From: Candidatus Cloacimonadota bacterium
GTDB lineage: Bacteria; Cloacimonadota; Cloacimonadia; G963667145
Assembly (NCBI GenBank): GCA_963667255.1
Contig: OY762940.1
Location: 1,376,001-1,440,000 of the forward strand
Direction: 5' to 3'
DNA: 64,000 nucleotides
In this document: one piece after another, positions 26,530 to 40,765 of the stretch
Layout of the letters: every line of letters begins with the position of its first letter
How positions within the stretch are numbered: the first letter of the stretch is position 1
Notes under the pieces: model-generated
Database searches by the model: none
The model's input: the letters and a program-made list of their open reading frames with translations, nothing else
Told to the model about the DNA's origin: nothing
Position numbers and translations under genes: made by a program

Positions 26530-27243
26530 TTATATTGCTTCCTCTCCTAAATAAGCTTTCTTCACATCTTCATTATTCGCAAGCTCTTTACCAGTGCCAT
26601 GCATAGTGACTCTACCAGTTTCCAGCACGAAAGCATAATCAGAAATTTCCAAAGCCGCCTTGGCATTTTGCTCAATTAACAAGACAGTAACACCACCCTC
26701 ATTAATCCTCTGAATAACCTGCAAAATATCTTTTACAATCAAAGGAGCCAATCCAAGACTCGGCTCATCCATCATAATCAACTTCGGCTTAGTCATCAAA
26801 GCCCTACCCACGGCAAGCATCTGTTGTTCCCCTCCGGAGAGAGTTCCCGCCTCTTGCCACTGTCTCTCTTCCAATCTGGGGAAAACCTCAAAAACATACT
26901 TCATTAAATCCAAAATAACGGGCTTGCTTTTAATATTATAAGCACCCATAATCAAATTCTCTTTAACGGACAAATTAGCAAAAACTCTTCGCCCTTCAGG
27001 AACTAAAACCACACCGGATTTGACAATGTCCACAACGCTTTTGCCCAAAATTTCGTTTCCGTCATACACAACACTGCCGCTTCTAGCCTTTTCCAAGCCG
27101 ACAACTGTTCTGAGAGTCGTGGATTTCCCTGCTCCATTTGCTCCGATTAGAGAGATTATTTTGCCCTTGGGCACCTCAAAACTTATACCATCAATAGCTG
27201 TAATACCACCGAAATTCACACTGAGATTTGTAACTTTTAACAT
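26530..27243 (-). CDS. livF: Branched-chain amino acid ABC ATPase
   Basis: GANGAGKS, LSGGEQQM, DEPSLGLAP. Confidence 0.92.
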   Translation of the reverse strand: MLKVTNLSVNFGGITAIDGISFEVPKGKIISLIGANGAGKSTTLRTVVGLEKARSGSVVYDGNEILGKSVVDIVKSGVVLVPEGRRVFANLSVKENLIMGAYNIKSKPVILDLMKYVFEVFPRLEERQWQEAGTLSGGEQQMLAVGRALMTKPKLIMMDEPSLGLAPLIVKDILQVIQRINEGGVTVLLIEQNAKAALEISDYAFVLETGRVTMHGTGKELANNEDVKKAYLGEEAI

Positions 27244-27244
27244 A

Positions 27245-28012
27245 TTAATCAACCCCCAAATAAGCTTCTATCACTTTAGGATTTTTCTGAATTTCACTAG
27301 GAACACCCTTAGCTATCGTTTCCCCGTAATCTATCACATACACTCTATCGCAAACACCCATAACCACCTGCATATGATGCTCTATCAAAAAAATAGTAAC
27401 GCCAAATTTATCCCTAATCTGATGAATAAACTCCATCAATTCAACTGACTCCTGAGGATTCATACCAGCTGCAGGCTCATCCAAAAGCAAAACCTTAGGC
27501 TTGGTAGCCAAAGCTCTGGCAATTTCCAATCTTCTTTGTTTTCCGTAAGGCAAACTCGAAGCCTTATACTCAGCAAACTGCTCTAATCCAACTTCTTTCA
27601 AGAGTAACATCGCATTCTCGAACATTTTACTCTCTTCTGCACGATAACCCTTTGTCCGCAAAATAGAAGCAAAAATATTGGAGCTAATATTCATTTGTTG
27701 GGCGATAAAAACATTTTCCAAAACGCTCATATCATCAAAAAGGCGAATATTTTGAAAAGTTCTAACAACACCCTTTTTCACAATTTCTTCGATTTTCAAA
27801 CCGTCTATTTTTTCTCCGTTCAAGTAAACTTCGCCGTTAGTAGGAAGATACACTCCGGTAATCATATTGAAAATAGTGGTTTTCCCTGCCCCATTAGGAC
27901 CAATCAAACCAACAATCTCCCCCTGTTCAATCTCCATATTGTAAGTATCAACAGCGGTAAGTCCACCGAATTTTATCGTTAAATCTCTGCAACTCAATAT
28001 ACTGCTCATCAT
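27245..28012 (-). CDS. livG: Branched-chain amino acid ABC ATPase
   Basis: GPNGAGKT, RTFQNIRLF, LPYG, DEPAAGMN, VIEAYLG. Confidence 0.92.
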   Translation of the reverse strand: MMSSILSCRDLTIKFGGLTAVDTYNMEIEQGEIVGLIGPNGAGKTTIFNMITGVYLPTNGEVYLNGEKIDGLKIEEIVKKGVVRTFQNIRLFDDMSVLENVFIAQQMNISSNIFASILRTKGYRAEESKMFENAMLLLKEVGLEQFAEYKASSLPYGKQRRLEIARALATKPKVLLLDEPAAGMNPQESVELMEFIHQIRDKFGVTIFLIEHHMQVVMGVCDRVYVIDYGETIAKGVPSEIQKNPKVIEAYLGVD

Positions 28013-29052
28013 TTGCTCCTTTTAAATCTGCTTTTAACAGAGCAAACTTTTTCCCAAGACAACTCTTGCCTTCCCATGATTCCTTTGCGATAAAAAAGAA
28101 TAATAAAAAGTAAAATGGCAGAAAATACCACCATGCGAGTCCCGGGGACACCAGGTATAGTGAACAATCCAAAATTCATCGGAGCATCCAAGAAACGAAG
28201 CCCTTCCAAAGCTATAACAAAAATAATAGAACCTATAATACTTCCGGAAACGCTACCAAGTCCACCCAAAACGATAATCAAAACGATATTAAAAGTAAGA
28301 ATAAACCGGAACATCAAAGGGTCAATAGTTCCGATAAGATGGGCCAAAAGACCACCACCTATTCCCGTGAAAAAAGCCGAGATTACAAAAGCCATCAGCT
28401 TGTATTTCATGACATTAATCCCGACAGCTTTAGCGGCAATTTCGTTTTCCCGAATTGCTTTAAAGGATTTGCCGTAACTTCCTTTTATCAAAAATCCGAT
28501 AACTATCACCGTAAAAACAGCCCAACCCCAGCTCCAATAAATATTGGTATAGTCGGGCAATCCTTTTAACCCCAAAGGTCCGTTAGTTATAGATTGCAAA
28601 TTTGTGAAAACAACTCTGATAATCTCTCCGAAGCCAAGAGTAGCAATAGCCAAATAGTCGTCGGTAAGTTTCAATACTGGAAATCCAATCAAAAAAGCAA
28701 CGAAAGCAGACAAAATTCCGCCTATCAAAAGAGCAACTATAAAAGGTAGCTCCACATTAGCCAAAATCGGAACAATCGGTGTCAAAAAGAAATTCATCTC
28801 TTTAACTTGTGCGGACATAGTCAAAAGAGCACTTGCGTAAGCTCCCAAAGCCATAAATCCTGCTGAGCCCAAAGACAACATCCCGATATAGCCGTTTATC
28901 AAATTTAAACTCACAGCCAAAACTATATAGATAGCACACAGATTAAGGATTCTCACTTGATAAGACCCGAAAATAGATTCGGACAAGGACAAAAACAAGA
29001 TGCCAATTATCACCAACACAATATTCAACTTTAATTTAAGCTTTTTGTCCAT
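28009..29052 (-). CDS. livM: Branched-chain amino acid ABC permease
   Basis: DYLAIATLGFGEI, AIRENEIAA. Confidence 0.9.
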   Translation of the reverse strand: MDKKLKLKLNIVLVIIGILFLSLSESIFGSYQVRILNLCAIYIVLAVSLNLINGYIGMLSLGSAGFMALGAYASALLTMSAQVKEMNFFLTPIVPILANVELPFIVALLIGGILSAFVAFLIGFPVLKLTDDYLAIATLGFGEIIRVVFTNLQSITNGPLGLKGLPDYTNIYWSWGWAVFTVIVIGFLIKGSYGKSFKAIRENEIAAKAVGINVMKYKLMAFVISAFFTGIGGGLLAHLIGTIDPLMFRFILTFNIVLIIVLGGLGSVSGSIIGSIIFVIALEGLRFLDAPMNFGLFTIPGVPGTRMVVFSAILLFIILFYRKGIMGRQELSWEKVCSVKSRFKRSK

Positions 29053-29055
29053 AAT

Positions 29056-29943
29056 CTACACCTTCTCTATAGCGTTAGAGCCAAAAATACCAGTTGGTTT
29101 AATCATCAAAATAGCAATCAAAAGCACAAAAGCAAAAGCGTCCCTAAATCCTGATAATGAAGGAGATAAAGCGACAATAGCAATTTCCCCAAACCCAATA
29201 ACCAAACCTCCAACAACCGCACCTTTAATCTTACCAATTCCACCGACGACAGCAGCAATAAAACACTTAAGCCCGGGAATAAGTCCCATCACGGGCATCA
29301 ACTGAGGATAACGCATGCTCCACATAATACCACCTACAGCTGCCAAACCCGAACCAATAGCAAAAGTGATAGACACAACTTTGTTTACACTAATTCCCAT
29401 CAGACTTGTAGTCTCTATGTCCAAACTGGACGCTCTCATAGCCATGCCTATTTTTGTTTTGTAAATTATATGTAATAACGCCAAAAGTGCCAAAATAGTA
29501 ACAACAGGAATGTAAGCGGAAACTCCTACAAATTGCACGGAAGCAATCTTAACAATCTTACCAAAAATTTCAGGAACCGGAAAAGCCTTCGGTCTGCCTC
29601 CGAAAACAACAATACCCAAATTTTGCAAGAAAAAAGAGACACCAATCGCAGAAATCATCACCGAAACTCGAGGATAATTACGAAGAGGCTTGTAAGCAAT
29701 TTTTTCCACAAAAATTCCGGTCAATATAGTCAGCAAGATGGCCAATAAAAAACTCAGCCACCATGGCAACAAAAACACTCCAAATAAATAAAATGCAAAA
29801 TAAGCACTTATCATGAAAATCTCACCGTGAGCAAAATTTATCAGCCTTATAATCCCGTAGACCATCGTGTATCCGATAGCTATCAAGGCATAAAGGCTAC
29901 CCAAAGAAAGAGCGTTAATCAAGTGTTGAAAAAAAATATCCAA
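29056..29943 (-). CDS. livH: Branched-chain amino acid ABC permease
   Basis: YALIAIGYTMVYG...NFAHG, AAVVGGIG. Confidence 0.92.
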   Translation of the reverse strand: MDIFFQHLINALSLGSLYALIAIGYTMVYGIIRLINFAHGEIFMISAYFAFYLFGVFLLPWWLSFLLAILLTILTGIFVEKIAYKPLRNYPRVSVMISAIGVSFFLQNLGIVVFGGRPKAFPVPEIFGKIVKIASVQFVGVSAYIPVVTILALLALLHIIYKTKIGMAMRASSLDIETTSLMGISVNKVVSITFAIGSGLAAVGGIMWSMRYPQLMPVMGLIPGLKCFIAAVVGGIGKIKGAVVGGLVIGFGEIAIVALSPSLSGFRDAFAFVLLIAILMIKPTGIFGSNAIEKV

Positions 29944-30000
29944 TTTATTAATTCTCCTCTACAAAATATAACAAAAGCAACAAGTAAAGCCACATTCATA

Positions 30001-30047
30001 AAAAGACTCTTTAATCCGAAGAAAAAATCAAAGCAGATTAAAGAGTC
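30001..30047 (-). terminator. Hairpin/partial terminator between livK and livH
   Basis: GACTCTTTAATC...GATTAAAGAGTC then T-run. Confidence 0.7.
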
Positions 30048-30064
30048 GTTAAAATAAACAAAAC

Positions 30065-31207
30065 TTATCTAGCTTCTACTGTAGTAAGATAAGTGAATTT
30101 ACCGTCTTTTATTTGTTTGATAATCGCAGGTTTGATAGCATCACCGTTAGCATCCAAAGTAACTATGCCGGCAGCACCCTCAAAACCTTCTGTTTTAGCA
30201 AGAGCATCTCTCAATTGGACAGGATCTGCTGTGCCAATTTTTTTGATAGTTTCATAAACCAATAAATATCCATCAAAACCAAGAGCAGTAACAGCAGCAG
30301 GCTCTTTGCCATATTTTTCTCTATAAGCTTTCAAGAAAACTTCAGAAGTTTTGGTAATAGGAGTCTCGGAAGTGAAGAAAGTAGACAAAACAGCACCTTC
30401 TGCAGCAGGTCCAGCTATCTCGATTAACTCTGGAGTTTCCCAAGTATCACCACCGAGCATAGGAATATCAAGACCAATTTCTTTGAGTTGTTTCATTACC
30501 AAAGCTGATTCGGTATAATTTCCGGGAGCAAAAATGGCATCAATTTTTTTACCCTTCAAAGAGGTCAATTGAGAAGTAAAATCTTGGTCTCCTGTATTAT
30601 AATCCAAAACAGTAACGATAGCATTCTCATCACTGGTAAGTTTGATGAAATCATCTGTGAAGAACTTAGCCAAAGCAACGGAATAATCGTTGGAAATCTC
30701 ACGAACTATTGCAACTTTGCGAGCACTAAGATTTGTATAAGCGTAATTTGCCATTACAGAACCTTGGAAGGGGTCTATAAAACAAGCTCTGAAATAAAAA
30801 TCGTTGCCTCTGGTAACCAAAGGATTGGTGCAAGAAATACCAATAGCTGGCACTTGAGCTTTGGCCACGATAGGACCAGCAGCCATAGAGAAAGAAGAAC
30901 CCCAGCTACCCAAGATAGCAGATACTTTCTCTTTGTCAGTCAAACGAACGGCAGCATTAGCAGCTTCTACTTTGTCAGATTTGTTATCAACAATTACCAA
31001 CTCAATCTTCTTACCCAAAACTTCCGGATACATCTCGTTAGCCATTTTAATACCCTCAACCTCCAACTCGCCACCGGCAGCATTGGCTCCAGTCAAAGGC
31101 TCAAAAACACCTATTTTGATAACTTTTGATTCGACTTTTTCTTCTTTACATCCCCAAAAAGAAAAAACTAATACAGCAAGAAATAGCAATTTAACTACTT
31201 TTAACAT
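30065..31207 (-). CDS. livK: Branched-chain amino acid ABC substrate-binding lipoprotein
   Basis: Lipobox FWGC; IKIGVFEPLTG; FRACFID; GGAGG RBS before ATG 31207. Confidence 0.88.
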   Translation of the reverse strand: MLKVVKLLFLAVLVFSFWGCKEEKVESKVIKIGVFEPLTGANAAGGELEVEGIKMANEMYPEVLGKKIELVIVDNKSDKVEAANAAVRLTDKEKVSAILGSWGSSFSMAAGPIVAKAQVPAIGISCTNPLVTRGNDFYFRACFIDPFQGSVMANYAYTNLSARKVAIVREISNDYSVALAKFFTDDFIKLTSDENAIVTVLDYNTGDQDFTSQLTSLKGKKIDAIFAPGNYTESALVMKQLKEIGLDIPMLGGDTWETPELIEIAGPAAEGAVLSTFFTSETPITKTSEVFLKAYREKYGKEPAAVTALGFDGYLLVYETIKKIGTADPVQLRDALAKTEGFEGAAGIVTLDANGDAIKPAIIKQIKDGKFTYLTTVEAR

Positions 31208-31327
31208 ATTACCTCCCAATTCAATATTAATCGTGTTTGACTTAAATTAATCAGAGATTTATCGTCAAGATTTTTTTATGTAGCTTTTTCTTTTGAAAAA
31301 CAGCCACACAGAATAATTGACTATATA

Positions 31328-32281
31328 TTAAAAAATACCTTTGAATCTATCTAACAAATTTTCTGTCAATCTGCTACTGCCCATGGTGAATAGATGTATC
31401 CCTGGAACGCCAAAATCGAGTAACTCTTCTATCATTTTAGTTACATAATCCAGACCGAATGTTTTCTCCTCTTCGCGACTACCAGCTTCGAACAAACCAT
31501 GCACCAACTCTTTGGGAACATCAAAATAGAAAGCTCTGGGAAGAGTCATCAAAATCTTGTGCGAACCTATCGGCTTAATCCCCGGTATTATCGGAATATC
31601 TATGCCCTCAGCTCTAACCAAATTGACGAACTCCTTGAATTTTTGCACATCATAAAACATCTGTGTGATGATATAATCCGCACCCGAAGCAACTTTTTGT
31701 TTCAGATAAAACAAATCTCTCTCCATGTTCAAGGCTTCAAAATGCTTTTCGGGATAAGCTGCAATTCCAATGCAAAAATCGCTCTTCCCCGCATTATCTA
31801 CGGGAAAAAGATACTGCCCTTCGTTCATCCGCTTAATCTGAGCCACCATCTGATCGGCATGCTCAAATCCATCCTCATTGGCAACAAAAACTCGGGCACC
31901 CATCTGTGGGTCGCCTCTGATTACATAAAGATTTTTGATACCCAAGAAATTCAAATTTATAAGCAAATCTTCCAATTCATATTTGTCAACACCGCCACAA
32001 ATAAGATGCGGAACAGCCTCGATACCCAACTTATACTGAATAGCAGCAGCAACTCCCACCGTGCCAGTTCTGCGATTTGTCGCTTCCTTCACCACTCCTG
32101 CACCAGTCTGCACCAACTTATACGCCCGCTGATGATTGGTAACATTGACAAAACTACAATTGTATTTGACCAACCTCTCCAACGGGTCAAGCACTTTACC
32201 AAGCTCCGAACCTCTGACCGGAGGCAACACCTCCAGCGACAAAACCGGTTTCCCTTTTTTTATAGCTTCTACAACTTTCAT
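31328..32281 (-). CDS. metF: Methylenetetrahydrofolate reductase
   Basis: SLEVLPP, HLIC, RGD, AAYPEKH, ITQMFYD, HLFTM. Confidence 0.92.
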   Translation of the reverse strand: MKVVEAIKKGKPVLSLEVLPPVRGSELGKVLDPLERLVKYNCSFVNVTNHQRAYKLVQTGAGVVKEATNRRTGTVGVAAAIQYKLGIEAVPHLICGGVDKYELEDLLINLNFLGIKNLYVIRGDPQMGARVFVANEDGFEHADQMVAQIKRMNEGQYLFPVDNAGKSDFCIGIAAYPEKHFEALNMERDLFYLKQKVASGADYIITQMFYDVQKFKEFVNLVRAEGIDIPIIPGIKPIGSHKILMTLPRAFYFDVPKELVHGLFEAGSREEEKTFGLDYVTKMIEELLDFGVPGIHLFTMGSSRLTENLLDRFKGIF

Positions 32282-32315: not shown

Positions 32316-33038
32316 TCAACAAAACTCCACGGCGAATTTGGATTTGATAGCGTATTGACCATCTATACAGGCGATAAACCCAAGCACATCGGGGTCTAAG
32401 CCATCCAAAACAACTTGCAAATCCTCAGCGGATTTCAGACGATTGGCATAGGCAGTCGCAAAACAGTCAGCCAAAACAGCGTTCCTCGCCACAACGCACA
32501 CACTATCGGCTCTCCCCTTGCTAAAACTCGGTCCGCTCTTGCCGGAAGAAGTCGCAACACCCATAGGAAATTCATCAATAGTAATACTCAAATCCCGACT
32601 GTTTTCGTCTCCGGTAGGTAGCAAAACCTTCGTCTCTTCATCTGCGAACAGATACAAGTCTCCACCGTTTTCCACCAATATTTTACCCAAATTAAATTTT
32701 TGCAACAAAAACTCTCCAACTTTTTTGGCAAAAAATCCAGCAATCCCCGCGAGAGGTCCAACTCCCGCTTGTTGCGAACATTTCTTCAGCTCCACAATAT
32801 CATCAGTATCTCCAATCTTCACATCCACAGGCAATAGTGAACGCAAGCTAACAAAATCGGAATAGCTCTCCAAACTCTCCCGCAAAGAAACAATCTGTTG
32901 CAAAAGCTCTTTCCCGATGACATCTCTGTCCACATTTGCCAAATAATGCACCACAATATCGCTGTCCTTGTGGCACGCCTGCACCCTCTCCCAACTTCCA
33001 GTGCTCAAACTCCTGTAAATGCGGAAATTATCGTTCAT
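32316..33038 (-). CDS. UPF0280/COG2122 ApbE-superfamily protein
   Basis: GVGPLAGIAG, VENGGD, TSSGKSGPSFSKGRAD, ADCFATA. Confidence 0.85.
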   Translation of the reverse strand: MNDNFRIYRSLSTGSWERVQACHKDSDIVVHYLANVDRDVIGKELLQQIVSLRESLESYSDFVSLRSLLPVDVKIGDTDDIVELKKCSQQAGVGPLAGIAGFFAKKVGEFLLQKFNLGKILVENGGDLYLFADEETKVLLPTGDENSRDLSITIDEFPMGVATSSGKSGPSFSKGRADSVCVVARNAVLADCFATAYANRLKSAEDLQVVLDGLDPDVLGFIACIDGQYAIKSKFAVEFC

Positions 33039-34182
33039 CCTTCTCCCGCAAAATCAATGGCTTTTGAACAATTTTGTCTTCAAACAGTTCCACCGGCTGA
33101 TTAATCTTGAAAATTCCCGACTTAATATTGTCCGCCAAAATATCCGCTATCTCTCTGGCTTTGTCCAGATTAGAAAAAGAGAATGTCTTGATTTTCTTCC
33201 CCGCAACTTCTATCTCGCCACTAAAAAGTTGCTGATAATTGACCTTTGCCAGAGCAGGATGCCCGTTCACAGAATAGTCTCGAACGAAAGTCTCGATTTG
33301 CTCATTGGCGACACTCACATTGGCAGCTATCTCCTCATTGAGGACAGGAATAGGAATGCCGACTCCCACGAAAAGACTCACACCGTAATTTTGCAACACC
33401 AAGGGTTTGATAAAATCGGGGTTCATCCTCTTCATATCGCCTATCAGAGCCAAAGCTGCCGACTGCTCCAAGGGAATGCCGTGTTCGTTCAACTCTCGCT
33501 GATTGTCATACTGCGTGCCTTGCCAGCTCACATATCCTCTGGCTCCTACCAAAAAAACTCTCGTGCCGACACCGATTGCTTGCATATGCGGGTCATTGAG
33601 CAGAGGGCTGAGTTCGCCCGCACTGGAATAGCTTACATTACCGAAATCGGAAAGCAATTTCCCCATGTAAGTGTAAATGTCCTTGCCACTTGAGTTGACA
33701 GCAGCTGGATAATTTTGATAAGCATTCCGCGGGTTGTAAAGGTAAGCCTGATTGATGTCGTCCAACTTGAAATAGGTTTTCACCTCTTTCCGCGGATAGC
33801 AGTCAGTTCCTTTGCCCTGTGCTTCCAAACAAACGCTTTTGCCAGCTATCAAATCGCAAATCACATGTGCTCCGCCATAACCAGGGTTGTCCGGATTCTC
33901 GGCAGTCGCTCCCAAATAGGTATCAGCAGCAGCCAAACCACCGTGAGCAGGCACTCCGTTAAGATAGATTTTCTCCATCCTAATAGGCAAATCCAAATTA
34001 CCGAAATTTAAAAAACAGCCTGATGAACACATCGGAGCAAAAGTCGCCGTGGTCACCACATCTACTTCCTTGCAAATTTCCGCACTCGATTTCTTTTTGG
34101 CGAGTTGCGTAGCTTGCTCGGCAGTGATAACTACAGCTTCTCCCGTCGCCAACCTCTTTTTGATTTCTTCAATCGTCTTCAT
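33028..34182 (-). CDS. Homocysteine biosynthesis protein (DUF39/COG1900, aspartate-semialdehyde sulfurtransferase-like)
   Basis: VDVVTTATFAPMCSSG, GGAHVI, TDCYP, NPRNAYQNY, GELSPLLNDP. Confidence 0.9.
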   Translation of the reverse strand: MKTIEEIKKRLATGEAVVITAEQATQLAKKKSSAEICKEVDVVTTATFAPMCSSGCFLNFGNLDLPIRMEKIYLNGVPAHGGLAAADTYLGATAENPDNPGYGGAHVICDLIAGKSVCLEAQGKGTDCYPRKEVKTYFKLDDINQAYLYNPRNAYQNYPAAVNSSGKDIYTYMGKLLSDFGNVSYSSAGELSPLLNDPHMQAIGVGTRVFLVGARGYVSWQGTQYDNQRELNEHGIPLEQSAALALIGDMKRMNPDFIKPLVLQNYGVSLFVGVGIPIPVLNEEIAANVSVANEQIETFVRDYSVNGHPALAKVNYQQLFSGEIEVAGKKIKTFSFSNLDKAREIADILADNIKSGIFKINQPVELFEDKIVQKPLILREKDER

Positions 34183-34210: not shown

Positions 34211-34246
34211 AAAAAAGGAGCCACCGTTTATCCGATGACTCCTTTT
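34211..34246 (-). terminator. Attenuator terminator of the met operon leader
   Basis: AAAAGGAGTCATCG-GATAAA-CGGTGGCTCCTTTT plus further T's, about 30 nt before the DUF39 start. Confidence 0.9.
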
Positions 34247-34273
34247 CTATCCAGTCTCACTGAATTTTTTAGG

Positions 34274-34387
34274 TCAAAAACGCCACCGAACAACATTAGG
34301 CATGCTCATCATCATACCATACATTCGCATCATCATAAAAGCAACCTCGCCGTGTCCGATTTCGTTCTTCACTATTTCGTTCTCCAT
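34274..34387 (-). CDS. Met-rich leader peptide MENEIVKNEIGHGEVAFMMMRMYGMMMSMPNVVRWRF
   Basis: 8 ATG codons within 12 codons (34301-34336); alternative GTG start at 34372 with GGAG SD; stop TGA 34274-34276. Confidence 0.85.
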   Translation of the reverse strand: MENEIVKNEIGHGEVAFMMMRMYGMMMSMPNVVRWRF

Positions 34388-34430
34388 AAATTCAACATTC
34401 GTCTTTCACGCAATTAATAATCCAAATCGG

Positions 34431-34436
34431 TGTCAA
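34431..34436 (-). promoter_or_regulatory. -35 box of the met leader
   Basis: Perfect TTGACA 44 nt upstream of the leader ATG. Confidence 0.55.
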
Positions 34437-34467: not shown

Positions 34468-36117
34468 CTAAAATCTGCTCGACTTCAAAAGTTCTTCAGC
34501 CTTCTCGGTAGCAGTTTTAAAATTGTCAAAAATCAACTCCTCAGCGACCAAATCCGTCAAATTATATTTAATCAACTCGTCTTTCACTTCGGCATTCACA
34601 CCAGAAATAATCACAGAGATATTTTTCTTCCGCAAAATAGACAAAACATCGTGCAGGTTACGCAGACCAGTCTGGTCGATAAACGAAACATGACGCATCC
34701 TGATAATCAGCACCTTGCATTTTAGCCCTATCTCCTCTATCGCCTCGGAATAAGTTCTGGCACAGGCGAAAAACAACGGTCCGCTTATTTCGTAAATTTT
34801 TATCTTTTGTGGCAAATCGGAATAGTTGTCCAAAAGGTCGTTGTCCACAACATCGTCAATCCGCTTTTCACTGATATCTGCCATCCGCTTCATAAAAAGT
34901 AACGCCGACAAGATGACGCCAATCTCAATTGCCAAAGTCAAATCAAAGAGGACGGTAATAAAAAAAGTCGTGAGCAAGATGAGGACATCAAAATACGAAC
35001 TTCGCAAAATAGCCACAAACGACCGCCATTCGCTCATATTATAAGAAACTACTATCAAAATTCCAGCCAAACACGACATGGGAATCAACTTCGCCCAACG
35101 ACCAAGAAAGAGCATAATCAGGAGCAAAGTAACGGCGTGAACCATACCCGAAATCGGTGTTCTTCCACCGTTTTTCACATTCGTGGCTGTGCGGGCTATC
35201 GCTCCGGTAGCGGGGATTCCTCCGAAAAAAGGCGTAACAATGTTTGCAATCCCTTGTGCAATCAACTCCGTATTGGAACGATGTTTACCGCTAATCATTC
35301 CGTCGGCTACCACAGCCGAGAGCAGAGACTCTATGCCACCAAGCAAGGCGATAGTGAGAGCAGGTGCGATGTAATTGTGCAAATCGGCAAATCTGACAGT
35401 CGGAAGAGCAAAAGCGAAACTGTTTGGTATAGAGCCGAAAAACGACTCTATCGTCGCCACATCGAGTTTGCAAAAATAGACCAACGGCGTAACGATGACA
35501 ATCGCCAAGAAAGAGCCGGGGATTTTGGAAGTGATTTTTTTGGAATAGAATGTTATCAAGATTGTGAACAGAGTGATGGCAAACGCAGTCCAATTTATCT
35601 GTGTAATATTAGCGAAATACACGAGCCATTTCTGATGAAAAACTGACGGAACTTTGGCAATATTCAGCCCCAGAGCGTCTTTGATTTGCGTGGAAAAAAT
35701 CGTCACGGCAATCCCGCTGGTAAAACCGACTATCAGAGAATGAGGGAAAAATTTGAGCAATGTTCCCATCTTGAGCAATCCGAAAAGTATCAAAATCACT
35801 CCGGCTAAAATGGTGGAAATGATAAGCCCGTCCACTCCATAACTCTCGACAATACCGTAAACTATGACAATGAAAGCACCAGTCGGACCGCCAATCTGCA
35901 CACGGCTACCACCAAGAAAGGAGATGATGAAACCCGCAACAATGGCGGTAATCAGCCCCTTCTCAGGAGAGACACCAGAAGCCACAGCAAAAGCAATCGC
36001 CAAAGGCAAAGCAACGATGCCAACTACTATTCCCGACAGGATGTCAGCGACTATCTGCTTTCGCTCTATTCCCGCCTTTAGCACGGTAAAAAATTTTGGT
36101 TTGAAAATTGTATTCAT
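34468..36117 (-). CDS. sulP: SulP/SLC26 anion transporter with STAS domain
   Basis: VALPLAIAFA, QIGGPTGAF, GAIARTATN, GPLFF, IDQTG. Confidence 0.92.
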   Translation of the reverse strand: MNTIFKPKFFTVLKAGIERKQIVADILSGIVVGIVALPLAIAFAVASGVSPEKGLITAIVAGFIISFLGGSRVQIGGPTGAFIVIVYGIVESYGVDGLIISTILAGVILILFGLLKMGTLLKFFPHSLIVGFTSGIAVTIFSTQIKDALGLNIAKVPSVFHQKWLVYFANITQINWTAFAITLFTILITFYSKKITSKIPGSFLAIVIVTPLVYFCKLDVATIESFFGSIPNSFAFALPTVRFADLHNYIAPALTIALLGGIESLLSAVVADGMISGKHRSNTELIAQGIANIVTPFFGGIPATGAIARTATNVKNGGRTPISGMVHAVTLLLIMLFLGRWAKLIPMSCLAGILIVVSYNMSEWRSFVAILRSSYFDVLILLTTFFITVLFDLTLAIEIGVILSALLFMKRMADISEKRIDDVVDNDLLDNYSDLPQKIKIYEISGPLFFACARTYSEAIEEIGLKCKVLIIRMRHVSFIDQTGLRNLHDVLSILRKKNISVIISGVNAEVKDELIKYNLTDLVAEELIFDNFKTATEKAEELLKSSRF

Positions 36118-36393: not shown

Positions 36394-37527
36394 TCATTTT
36401 CCCACCACTTTTTTGGTGGCTGCTATTTTGCTGTCGGCAAACATTACGACATCTTTTATAACCAGTTTTTGAATGGCGGAAATAAAAGTTTCCATTATAT
36501 TATAGTTTGGCTCGTTGTTTTGAGTTGGGAGATTCATTAATTGATTTGCAATAATATTTACATTAAAGCTTGAACTACCCCAAGAAAATGAACTAAAAGA
36601 TTTTGTCATTGTTGAAATAAAAAATAAAGCATTCAATTTATTGAAATTAGTTGTTTTGGATTTTAAAATTTTTATTTTATCCCCTGTGAAATAAGGCTTT
36701 TCTTGGTAAAACATTGTTGCCGTATCTTGTCCAAAAGAGATTGTATTTCCATTATTCAAAAATTGTTCGTCCTCATTTATATAGCCACGAATACCATTAT
36801 TTAAACTCGTTCTTACAACATAGGGTTTACCAATTTCTGAAATAGAAACCTTGTTAGCATCAAATCTTTTTTTATAAGAATTTATCTCAAACAATTCCCC
36901 AATTGCAAACTCTCCCCACTCAAACTTCTCATTTTCAAAATATCGCAAAACTTCTTGCTCTTTTTGGGTGAGCTCATAATCTTTGAGACCTGTTGTCAAA
37001 AGATAGGCTTCCAGCTCCGCCACTCGCTCCGCTTCCAGCTCCGCTATAAACTCTTCCATAAATTCAAAATCTATTTCGCCATTTTTAGTGGGAAGTTGGA
37101 TTTTGGTTTTATTCATAGCATCACGATTAAATTTATTCCCATAATCATATTGTTTAGAAGTGGAAACTCTACAAGCAGAAATAATAACACTTGCAATAGC
37201 TTTATTAAAAGGTTCAAATTTTGGGACTAAATGTTGAATATGAGAATATCCTATAAAATCATTTTCTTGATAATACATTGTATCTGCTCCTAAAGTTGTA
37301 TCAGAGCAACTGATTGTATTTCCTTTGTTATTTGCTTCCAAATTAGAAAATCCCATTACCCCATTATTAGATGAAGAATTTGAAATCAATGGAACATTAC
37401 CACTTTCAGAAATTATCTCTTCATTTTTTAATTTGTAATATTTTGTCGGATTTATCTCAAACAAATCCCCCAATCTGTATTCTCCCCACTCAACACTTTC
37501 CAGTTTCTCGCTGAGTGGGGAAACTAT
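36394..37527 (-). CDS. Restriction-modification specificity (S) subunit, two TRDs; probably entered by -1 frameshift
   Basis: Repeated EWGE..GxLFEIN conserved regions and two TRD-like blocks; no SD-led start codon near its 5' end. Confidence 0.85.
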   Translation of the reverse strand: MVSPLSEKLESVEWGEYRLGDLFEINPTKYYKLKNEEIISESGNVPLISNSSSNNGVMGFSNLEANNKGNTISCSDTTLGADTMYYQENDFIGYSHIQHLVPKFEPFNKAIASVIISACRVSTSKQYDYGNKFNRDAMNKTKIQLPTKNGEIDFEFMEEFIAELEAERVAELEAYLLTTGLKDYELTQKEQEVLRYFENEKFEWGEFAIGELFEINSYKKRFDANKVSISEIGKPYVVRTSLNNGIRGYINEDEQFLNNGNTISFGQDTATMFYQEKPYFTGDKIKILKSKTTNFNKLNALFFISTMTKSFSSFSWGSSSFNVNIIANQLMNLPTQNNEPNYNIMETFISAIQKLVIKDVVMFADSKIAATKKVVGK

Positions 37528-37533
37528 TTTCCC
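37481..37533 (-). other. Putative -1 programmed ribosomal frameshift signal
   Basis: Slippery G_GGA_AAA (37533-37527), TAG, then 14-bp stem TTTCCCCACTCAGC/GTTGAGTGGGGAGA. Confidence 0.75.
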
Positions 37534-39316
37534 AAGCGGTCGTCCTCGCTTTTTTGAGATTTTAGAATATTGGATACTTCCCAAGCAAGATAATCACTCA
37601 CCGTTTTTTTGAAATCTTGCAAAGTTGGTTTGGTGTCTATGGGAGCAGTTTTGTTCCAATCGGCACCATTTTGTGGGTCAATAGTGCTTTCGTGATACTC
37701 TTTTTCTGTGAAAATATTGAGTTTGTTTTTGCCAAACCGCACCAAATTTACCAACTCTTCATATCTTTCTTTGGCTTGGTTTGTATCTTTCAGGTTATTG
37801 CTGGATTTTTTGCGATTGGTTCTGGTGTAGCCATCGTTGGAAAAATCGATAAACTTCACTACTTCATCTTTGTTGTGAGCCTCGTTCACTCTAAAAACAT
37901 AAACATTGGTTTGTACACTGGATTTGCCAATAAACAAATCTATAGGCATTTTGATACTTGCCAAAAGTGTATGCTTTTGCAAAATCCTTTTGTTGTATTC
38001 TTTGGCTTTCCCACTACCTGCCGAATTTTGAATAATGATTGCTGCATAACCTTTGCTCATCATATTTAGAGCCTTTTCCACAAACACCATTCCGTTGCCA
38101 GGTGCTGAATAAGGAGGATTTAGCACAAAAGCGGTGGCGGGAAATTTATTGTTAGTGTTTCCAAATGCATATTTTCCGTCAAAATCGCTCAAAGAGTTTT
38201 TGTTCAAAATATTGGAACTGCCATCGCCCATCAATATCATATTAAGAACTGCCAACATATAAATACTGGAGAGCAACTCCAATCCAAGTAATTGTTCAGC
38301 TTTTATTTTCAACTCTTTTTGTCTTAATTCATCAGGTGAAGTGATAGTATTTTTGGCATCGTTGAGCATTTCGTTCATCGCAGCTACCAAAAGTCCTGCC
38401 GAGCCTGTGGCAAAATCCCAAACGAAAGAGTCTTTGTTCACTCTGGCAAGTTTTACCAAAAATGAAGCCACATAAGAGGGAGTAAGCACCACATCGTTGA
38501 GTTTGTCTTGAGTAAAGCCAAGCCAACCATACATTTCATTAAAAAGTTTTCCTGTGAAATCAGTAGTTAAGCCGATTTTATAATAAATTCCCAAATCATC
38601 AACAATTTTACTAAAAACTCTTTTTAACTGGCTTTCATCATTCTCAACTTTATTGATATTGTCCGTCAAAAGTGTGTTGGACAATGTTCTAATGATAAGG
38701 TCTTTTTTCTCTTTCGGTAAATCTTTTTCGTTTAGATAAGCACTAACTCTATTGATCATTATATCGCCATCTCGTCCTCCGACATAAGATTGCGACTTTA
38801 ACTCATCTTTTTCCAAAACAGGAACTTTATCAGGAATACCCAAAGTAGCGATAATAGAAGCTGCCACCAAATAAACTCTATCGTTTTCGCCCAAGCCTTT
38901 TTCACTTTGATAAATATCGTTATTGAGTTTTACCAAACTAACATCAATTTCTCTTTCTTTTTGCTCTTTGAGTTTATCAATTTCTTCTTGGCTTAAACTC
39001 AAAGTTTTGACATCTTCAACAAAAGCATCAAAATTTTCTTTTTTCAAAAAAGAAAAATCGGAAAACTCACCTACTTTTTGACCAATACCAAAATTAGTTT
39101 TGGAAACATAATATACTCCAATTTGATATTGCAATTCTCCCATTTCATCTTTGTAGCCCGTCATTCCTATGGCAATAATATCTGTGTATCCAGTATAATG
39201 AAGTATGGCATTTGCATAGTGCACAGCACCATTTACCGCATAAGAATTGATATTTGAAAAATTTGGCTTATTATCAGCTTTTTTATTTTCAACCTGCCCA
39301 TCAGCATTGAGTTTTA

Positions 39317-40427
39317 GGGAGTGTGCAAATAACTGGGTCTGAAATAAGACCTAATTATGTTTGACAGAATAAGTTATGAACATTTATTAAAATGCCATGA
39401 GTATAATCAAAAAAAACGCTGTCCAAATTGTGATAGCTTAAACACAAAAAAGAAGGGATATATTTTCTCTGAAAGAACAACTAATCGTGGGAAAATTAAA
39501 GTCAAAACTCAACGATTTTATTGTAAAGATTGCCAAATAAGTTTTACCAATTTTGGATATAATAAGAGAACTCATTTTGCACCAAAATTCAAAGATAAGG
39601 TTGTTACTGACTATATTTCAACCAAAAGTTCTCTTTCTGAAGTTGCTAAAAGACATGGGATTTGTAAAAATAGTATTCTTAATTGGATACCTCAGCGAGC
39701 TAATTTATATCAGGATAATGTGTTACACAGCAATATAGATGAGACAACAATTTATATTGATGGCAAGGAAATTAAGATAAACGGTAAGCGAAAAGTTGTC
39801 TTAGTCGCCAGTAGCAAACTACTTGATAAACCAATATATTACAAGATTTATGATAGAGAACATAGTAGTTCATCTGAAGACTTTTTGAATAGACTAAAAA
39901 AAATGTATGACAACAAAATAATTGGGATTGTGTCAGATTTTGGGCGAGGGAAGTGCTTTGTTAAGCCAGTTAACCAACTTTTTGAAGATGTTCCACATCA
40001 AATTTGCTTGGTTCATTATTTAAGAAGCGTTAATATCAATGTTCCTAAAACAAAAAAGAGTAAGTTTTTTAGACGAAATATTTTCTTTAAGAACTTGATT
40101 AAGAGCATTTTAAATGCTGAAACTTTACAAGAAGCTGAAAATAATTTAAGTTCGCTTAATCACTATGAAAAATTTTTTCGCCTAAAAATTCATAAGCGTT
40201 TTATTAAATCAATTAATCGAAACTTTGGTTTATTAACTGCTCATTTTCATTACGATTTTTTGGATAAAACAACAAATAAAATTGAAAATATTAATCGACA
40301 ATTGAATAGGAAATTAAAAAATTTAGACGGATTTAAATCTGAAAAAAATATGAATCATTTTTTGAAAATTTGGTTCAATAATTATTCAAAAGGAGTGGAA
40401 ATTAGACCCAATTAAATGCACGCTCCC
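39317..40427 (+). mobile_element. IS256-like insertion sequence, 1111 bp
   Basis: 24-bp imperfect IRs (39317-39340, 40404-40427; 20/24 match) and 8-bp target duplication GAGTTTTA (39309-39316, 40428-40435). Confidence 0.93.
39357..40415 (+). CDS. DDE transposase (Mutator/IS256-like) with N-terminal Zn finger and HTH
   Basis: CPNC...CKDC, IDG, VSD, CLVH, TTNKIE motifs. Confidence 0.9.
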   Translation: MFDRISYEHLLKCHEYNQKKRCPNCDSLNTKKKGYIFSERTTNRGKIKVKTQRFYCKDCQISFTNFGYNKRTHFAPKFKDKVVTDYISTKSSLSEVAKRHGICKNSILNWIPQRANLYQDNVLHSNIDETTIYIDGKEIKINGKRKVVLVASSKLLDKPIYYKIYDREHSSSSEDFLNRLKKMYDNKIIGIVSDFGRGKCFVKPVNQLFEDVPHQICLVHYLRSVNINVPKTKKSKFFRRNIFFKNLIKSILNAETLQEAENNLSSLNHYEKFFRLKIHKRFIKSINRNFGLLTAHFHYDFLDKTTNKIENINRQLNRKLKNLDGFKSEKNMNHFLKIWFNNYSKGVEIRPN

Positions 40428-40765
40428 GAGTTTTACAAGTTTATCTTTATAACCTTTGTATTCAATAAGAATAGAATAAGACTTGGAATTTTTATCTTTC
40501 AAAAGTAATTTTGCATCAGGACGATTTGCTCCGCTTCCACCATTTTTAGTAAAATAATCAGTAAGAGCTTTATCAATTTCAGAGTTTAAAGATTCTTGCT
40601 CTAATTTATAATCTAATTTGTAGGATTTAAGCCAACCATTCGCTAAGTCAGCAATATTTGGTTCTATTGATTTTGCCATATTACTCCCTCTTATTTATCC
40701 AATTTTTTTAACATTTTAAAACGATATTTCTATAAATAAAATTATTCCCAAAAATCTTCCTCAAC

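Follow-up and report, generated by a model that had tools for sequence, protein, structure and literature searches.

A conserved methionine-codon leader upstream of a methionine-synthesis operon in one Cloacimonadota genus is a probable ribosome-coupled attenuator

The window analyzed here, a 64,000-nucleotide stretch of a Candidatus Cloacimonadota genome (G000), carries on its minus strand the gene series hcyBio-COG2122-metF, preceded by a compact leader (Table 1) whose terminal U-tract lies 28 nt from the hcyBio start. An earlier note on this DNA, made from the sequence alone, had placed these genes in homocysteine and methionine synthesis, and profile matches agree with it, namely PF01837 for the first gene and PF02219 for the third. 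The middle gene resembles the NCBIfam PRK04334 models, which we take to be equivalent to COG2122, the basis for its label. In four same-genus relatives (G002-G005), the gene after metF encodes ~160-190 amino acids, a protein which from its motif presumably resembles the MetH activation domain, and metH comes next in the same gene run. Given this gene content and the metH of the relatives, the series can be regarded as a methionine-synthesis operon. Desulfovibrio vulgaris mutants in DUF39 and COG2122 are described as recovering growth when methionine is supplied (PMC5764234).

Table 1. Features of the leader and of the operon that follows it (positions in the window; 6/6, all six genomes of the genus set).
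Feature	Position	Strand	Evidence or remark
-35-like hexamer TTGACA, putative promoter, non-canonical -10	34431..34436	-	upstream of leader in 6/6
Shine-Dalgarno-like GGAG, 9 nt before GTG 34372	34382..34385	-	sequence; 16S 3' end CCTCC
Leader ORF; 32 aa with the likely start GTG 34372, 37 aa with ATG 34387	34274..34372	-	open, in frame with Met cluster in 6/6
Segment 1, predicted protector arm	34353..34360	-	pairs with 34292-34285; in RNAalifold consensus
Putative sensor, 8 Met codons in 12	34301..34336	-	top Met window of the genome; 6-8 Met in 6/6
Apex hairpin in Met cluster, 4 bp, ATGC / GYAT, 9-nt loop (predicted)	34314..34330	-	6/6 genomes
Segment 2 and its U-run, predicted partner of segment 1 or segment 3	34276..34292	-	34292-34277: 97% mean pairwise identity
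Segment 3, terminator 5' arm and predicted antiterminator 2:3 partner	34231..34242	-	54/54 cells pair
Intrinsic terminator 3:4 (predicted)	34211..34246	-	10-bp core 34242-34233 with 34226-34217; U6 tract 34216-34211
HcyBio / DUF39 homocysteine-biosynthesis enzyme	33028..34182	-	Pfam PF01837, E 5e-137
COG2122/UPF0280-like protein	32316..33038	-	NCBIfam PRK04334 models, E 6e-40, below cut-off; no Pfam match
metF, methylenetetrahydrofolate reductase	31328..32281	-	Pfam PF02219, E 5e-62; TIGR00676, E 9e-75, below cut-off

The surroundings of the operon vary in several respects. The methionine synthase has been swapped within the genus: G000 and G001 carry metE at a separate locus with no metH match, whereas G002-G005 carry metH at the end of the operon that follows the leader, with no metE match. 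The metE gene of G000 (G000:C1:1015817-1018069) lies behind a TTGACA-N18-TATAAA arrangement, with neither a Met leader nor an Rfam match upstream. In G218, a genome of the same phylum, a NIL-ferredoxin gene lies between DUF39 and COG2122; the window operon has none at the corresponding junction (33028-33038). A tblastn search of G000 with one query found no full-length NIL-ferredoxin, only ferredoxin-domain matches, so another ferredoxin may serve. About 110 nt past metF, on the same strand, begins a Liv-type ABC transporter operon (26530-31219) encoding a binding protein, two permeases, and two ATPases. The gap holds a TTGACG hexamer and no listed terminator, and the transporter operon may be transcribed by read-through from the methionine operon. 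Elsewhere in the window, a restriction-modification-like locus (36394-40679), labeled by inspection, includes a methylase-like ORF (37524-39224) and a specificity-like ORF (36394-37584); an IS-like transposase ORF (39357-40415) apparently breaks it up, and ORFs sharing the same N-terminus occur elsewhere in the genome, near 331800 and 1008372.

The leader contains the 37-codon minus-strand ORF that had been proposed at 34387-34274, and its codons 18-29 (34336-34301), MMMRMYGMMMSM, indeed hold eight Met codons in 12. The 1.59-Mb genome contains ~1.92 million stop-free 12-codon windows in its six frames; at least six Met are reached at the leader locus alone, and the best window elsewhere has five. 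For comparison, we assembled a six-genome set consisting of G000 and five same-genus genomes (G001-G005). In all six, a leader ORF of 29-34 amino acids follows a start codon and a purine-rich site (weak in G002), six to eight Met fall within 10-12 codons, and despite indels the cluster AUGs all share one frame with the upstream start. The six peptides have the motif MxMRMxGMMxM in common (G004 without the x). In three relatives (G002, G003, and G005), the cluster reads MMCM, with a Cys codon among the Met codons, and thus these leaders might also respond to Cys. The small apex hairpin modeled within the cluster may account for its invariant Arg-CGA and Gly-GGY codons. Apart from this leader, the top 40 candidates of a genome-wide small-ORF scan of G000 include none that is convincing as an amino-acid leader.

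While the frame and stop of the ORF stand as first described, its start was probably set five codons too early. Translation likely begins at GTG 34372 rather than at ATG 34387, since the former is preceded by GGAG and has equivalents in all the relatives, and the latter is unconserved, being ACG in G001, and lacks a GGAG-type site. Purine-rich sites precede the equivalent start in the relatives, and in all six genomes 9-12 nt separate a start codon from segment 1. The TTGACA that had been noticed on the minus strand is also present (34436-34431); no canonical -10 element is found 16-18 nt from it, and a sigma-70 promoter scan did not list the site. The 276 TTGACA sites located at most 300 nt upstream of genes in G000 share no clear TATAAT consensus at a distance of 16-18 nt, and promoters of this lineage may be of a deviating type.

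The end of the ORF and the region beyond it can adopt alternative RNA structures. Pairing of TTCGGTGGC (34290-34282) with GTCATCGGA (34239-34231), as previously suggested, is confirmed at nine of nine positions, three of them G-U, and the strong terminator claimed at 34246-34211 is predicted to fold at -20.7 kcal/mol (z -7.9), with none of 200 shuffles as good. In all six genomes, the leader ends in such a hairpin, of -12 to -16 kcal/mol, with a U-tract. In the predicted fold, a protector arm that was absent from the first reading, segment 1, completes a four-segment design, in which 1:2 and 2:3 exclude each other, as do 2:3 and 3:4. The 1:2 region folds at -28.2 kcal/mol (3/200 shuffles as good) and the 2:3 region at -18.1 kcal/mol (1/200), and the best duplex between leader and segment 3 reaches -15.9, matched by 17 of 1000 shuffles. 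An RNAalifold consensus holds 1:2 together with 3:4.

These pairings are maintained in all six genomes. In the 1:2 helix, all 48 aligned cells pair, with one-sided variation in four of eight pairs among the six genomes; in 2:3, one-sided variation affects three of nine. Pairing survives every substitution seen in either helix, and slid controls for the two yield only 26-63% pairing. Among these six close relatives, neither helix shows a two-sided change, 500 of 500 shuffles reach the covariation score and are thus uninformative, and the helices were derived from the same sequences; the pairing is, therefore, conserved rather than proven by covariation. Mean pairwise identity is 0.88 for segment 1, 0.87 for the Met block, 0.97 for segment 2, and 0.90 for segment 3, and only 0.39, 0.55, and 0.60 for the spacers. 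Segment 2 is translated in three frames (RWRF, FDGVFD, SMAFLTN), four genomes using the RWRF frame and G003 and G005 the remaining two, and hence it is the nucleotides that are conserved here and not the peptide. The spacing is similarly constant: between the end of the last Met codon of the cluster and segment 2 lie 7-9 nt in every genome of the set (8, 8, 8, 8, and 7 nt, and 9 nt in G005, where the distance was read from the alignment and a later Met falls inside segment 2). Segment 1 sits 13-19 nt upstream of the sensing codons, which places the cluster within the loop of a long 1:2 hairpin.

Met cluster, antiterminator, and terminator are thus kept in 5/5 same-genus genomes, the conservation by which the earlier note had proposed to judge its reading. 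The leader is known from this one genus only, that is, from six of 151 phylum genomes. HcyBio itself occurs in seven of 232 phylum genomes, the six of the genus and G218, where an aspartate-kinase-like gene precedes it and its immediate upstream region holds no leader; two Candidatus Cloacimonadota records contain HcyBio proteins that are 87% and 80% identical. As an outgroup, we used the class of G061, in which 87 of 201 genomes are HcyBio-positive. At 31 loci, comprising the best 30 of those 87 (two with short upstream DNA) and G218, no region upstream of HcyBio has more than three Met in 12 codons, the best windows having one to three, and none of the 20 of the 30 best loci scanned gave an Rfam match. 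A sequence-only leader model run against 151 phylum genomes (E<=0.01) returned 13 matches, of which six were the training set and seven were weak and without a Met leader. A pattern too loose to bear on the absence of such leaders found at least 118 stretches in metagenomes; of the 118 listed, none has the segment 2 and segment 3 signature, and those inspected among the matches listed resemble microsatellites or coding Met runs. No viral contig matched the strict leader pattern, and a related-locus search returned four loci.

On the strength of sequence and folding models, we consider it highly probable that the element is a ribosome-coupled transcription attenuator of the classical type with methionine specificity. 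This agrees with the leader-peptide attenuator originally proposed, which is supported by the conserved Met cluster (5/5), the lack of an Rfam family, and the Met genes downstream. The sensed signal would be charged elongator Met-tRNA, read by means of a Met-rich ORF that overlaps four RNA segments. With ample Met, the ribosome would reach the stop codon and cover segment 2, leaving 3:4 and its U-tract to terminate transcription ahead of hcyBio. When Met-tRNA is scarce, the ribosome would stall within the Met cluster, whose final Met codon stops 8 nt short of segment 2; the stalled ribosome, together with one queued behind, would disrupt 1:2, so that segment 2 could catch segment 3 as it emerges. 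Once 2:3 has formed, the polymerase would continue into hcyBio-COG2122-metF. If the leader is not translated, 1:2 would be the first helix to form, so that transcription would terminate by default.

Ribosome-masked folding, a check the earlier note had recommended, is consistent with this scheme. The calculation took a transcript ending after segment 3 and kept everything 5' of the leading edge of the ribosome, whose footprint size is assumed, unpaired. With the edge set anywhere from +6 to +12, the six leaders form 2:3 when the ribosome is at 41/41 Met codons, and with +15 at 35/41; with the ribosome at the stop codon, 2:3 never forms in any of the six under the assumed footprint. With a +9 edge, the boundary of 2:3 formation falls one codon past the last Met in every leader. 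If only a single footprint is masked, 1:2 re-forms around a ribosome at the middle Met codons in four of six leaders (P(2:3) 0.00-0.37); without a ribosome, 1:2 beats 2:3 in four, and 2:3 wins in G003 and G004. At equilibrium, the terminator is always folded in the full-length transcript, and the switch must therefore be kinetic. We infer that the model requires a cotranscriptional order of folding, together with queuing or steric blocking of 1:2, the latter because 1:2 re-forms around a single footprint.

Methionine shortage could also block initiation with fMet, favoring termination, which is a point against the model; Met is described as charging initiator and elongator tRNA alike (PMC7949028). 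G000 contains three CAT-anticodon tRNAs, one of which has initiator features. Under the selective-charging model associated with the names Elf (2003) and Dittmar (2005), initiation would reportedly persist while elongation stalls.

Several other explanations are much less likely. The switch might not depend on translation, the leader being an unknown SAM or Met riboswitch or a protein target in which the AUG repeats serve as the binding motif and the ORF is incidental; in its favor, the Met block is strongly conserved as nucleotides, its CGA codon being invariant, the cluster contains a small conserved hairpin, and orphan Met-gene RNA elements with terminators are known, such as metXZ (PMC4239095). 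The Rfam scan proposed earlier, however, gave no riboswitch or T-box match in the leader, with a tRNA as the sole match in the whole window: nothing in the leaders reached the Rfam gathering score, at E<=1 the only matches were two weak ones to Xist in two relatives, and none was to a SAM/SAH riboswitch or T-box model. Likewise, searches that were positive in control genomes detected no SAM-I in any of the six genomes and no T-box in G000. Moreover, the AUGs of the cluster share their frame with a start codon and purine-rich site in all six genomes, and the distance from the last Met to segment 2 fits a ribosome footprint. Because no Rfam family matches and the AUGs are in frame, a ligand- or protein-bound RNA is improbable. 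We give somewhat less credence to an arrest peptide of the kind represented by TnaC and plant CGS1, in which the nascent chain would stall the ribosome on a free metabolite such as SAM. MRMxGMM is kept at the amino-acid level in 6/6 leaders, as such a sensor would have it, but the fixed R and G codons match the apex hairpin, and no peptide is conserved up to a C-terminal stall site: that part is read in three frames with its nucleotides kept, and it is this freedom from frame constraint that makes an arrest peptide unlikely. In addition, a ribosome stalled close to the stop codon would hide segment 2, and termination would follow with no peptide needed.

Less probable again is a sensor of general translation rate, or of Met and Cys jointly. 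The Cys codon in three of the leaders points that way, and the ribosome could also pause at CGA if this codon is decoded slowly; yet the G000 leader contains no Cys, eight of its 12 sensing-zone codons are Met, and CGA is not especially rare in this genome (1993 of 14861 Arg codons). The least credible reading takes the hairpin for the constitutive terminator of the upstream SulP gene, which ends at 34468 on the same strand, next to a chance ORF. The Met cluster is a genome extreme, and only 28 nt separate the U-tract from hcyBio. Furthermore, the gene upstream varies (SulP in two genomes, a LigA-like gene in two, and others in two), and TTGACA, leader, and terminator accompany the operon in 6/6 genomes regardless; a plain SulP terminator is largely excluded on account of this change of neighbor.

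The methionine attenuator favored here can be set against known leaders. Classical attenuators (trpL, hisL, thrL, leuL, pheL, and ilvL) operate through segments 1:2, 2:3, and 3:4 with a U-tract. The Cloacimonadota leader has the same inventory, a short RBS-bearing ORF, a run of end-product codons, predicted 1:2, 2:3, and 3:4 pairings, a terminator with its U-tract, and a stop codon over segment 2, with stall and stop geometry predicted under the assumed footprint. Unlike them, it would sense the amino acid that initiates translation, and its 1:2 hairpin is long and carries the sensing codons in its loop; the likeness is one of design. Classical leader-peptide attenuators are mentioned in PMC2965389 and PMC1262725. 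The latter also describes leaders of actinobacterial cys operons, in which a run of sulfur-amino-acid codons similarly precedes a sulfur-amino-acid operon; as portrayed there, those leaders carry runs of Cys codons and lack a conserved terminator hairpin, whereas the Met leader has a full terminator/antiterminator set. For actinobacterial methionine operons, the accessible text of the same source reports no conserved upstream RNA structure (PMC1262725). SAM-I (S-box) and other SAM/SAH riboswitches and Met T-boxes likewise control Met genes from the 5' leader, often through a terminator and antiterminator (PMC4239095), but, as described there, they contact SAM or uncharged tRNA directly, and a Met-codon ORF is not part of them. 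The candidate metXZ element of beta-proteobacteria also combines predicted alternative folds and a terminator ahead of Met-synthesis genes (PMC4239095); compared by its description alone, it belongs to another lineage and other genes, and the accessible text describes no leader ORF or Met codons.

The control of Met genes described in PMC4239095 consists of SAM/SAH riboswitches, Met T-boxes, and transcription factors, and the accessible portions of PMC2965389, PMC3082878, PMC1262725, and PMC4239095 describe no Met leader-peptide attenuator. A full-text literature search that covered few subscription papers and no supplements found none either. A 2010 survey by the Lyubetsky group reportedly predicted that unusual amino acids, perhaps methionine among them, act through attenuation, and thus an earlier computational mention may exist.

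On balance, we lean toward the view that the leader represents an unpublished, Met-specific class of attenuator that arose independently in a small-genome lineage without SAM-I, that works only because elongator Met-tRNA discharges before initiator fMet-tRNA, and that serves this lineage as the sensor for the homoserine-independent DUF39 route. At ~170 nt and self-contained, the element could be turned, in an E. coli Met auxotroph, into a genetically encoded reporter for the charging of Met-tRNA. A Met leader-peptide attenuator would add a missing amino acid to a textbook mechanism, and it poses the question of how a sensor read by the ribosome reports Met shortage when Met also starts the translation of that sensor.
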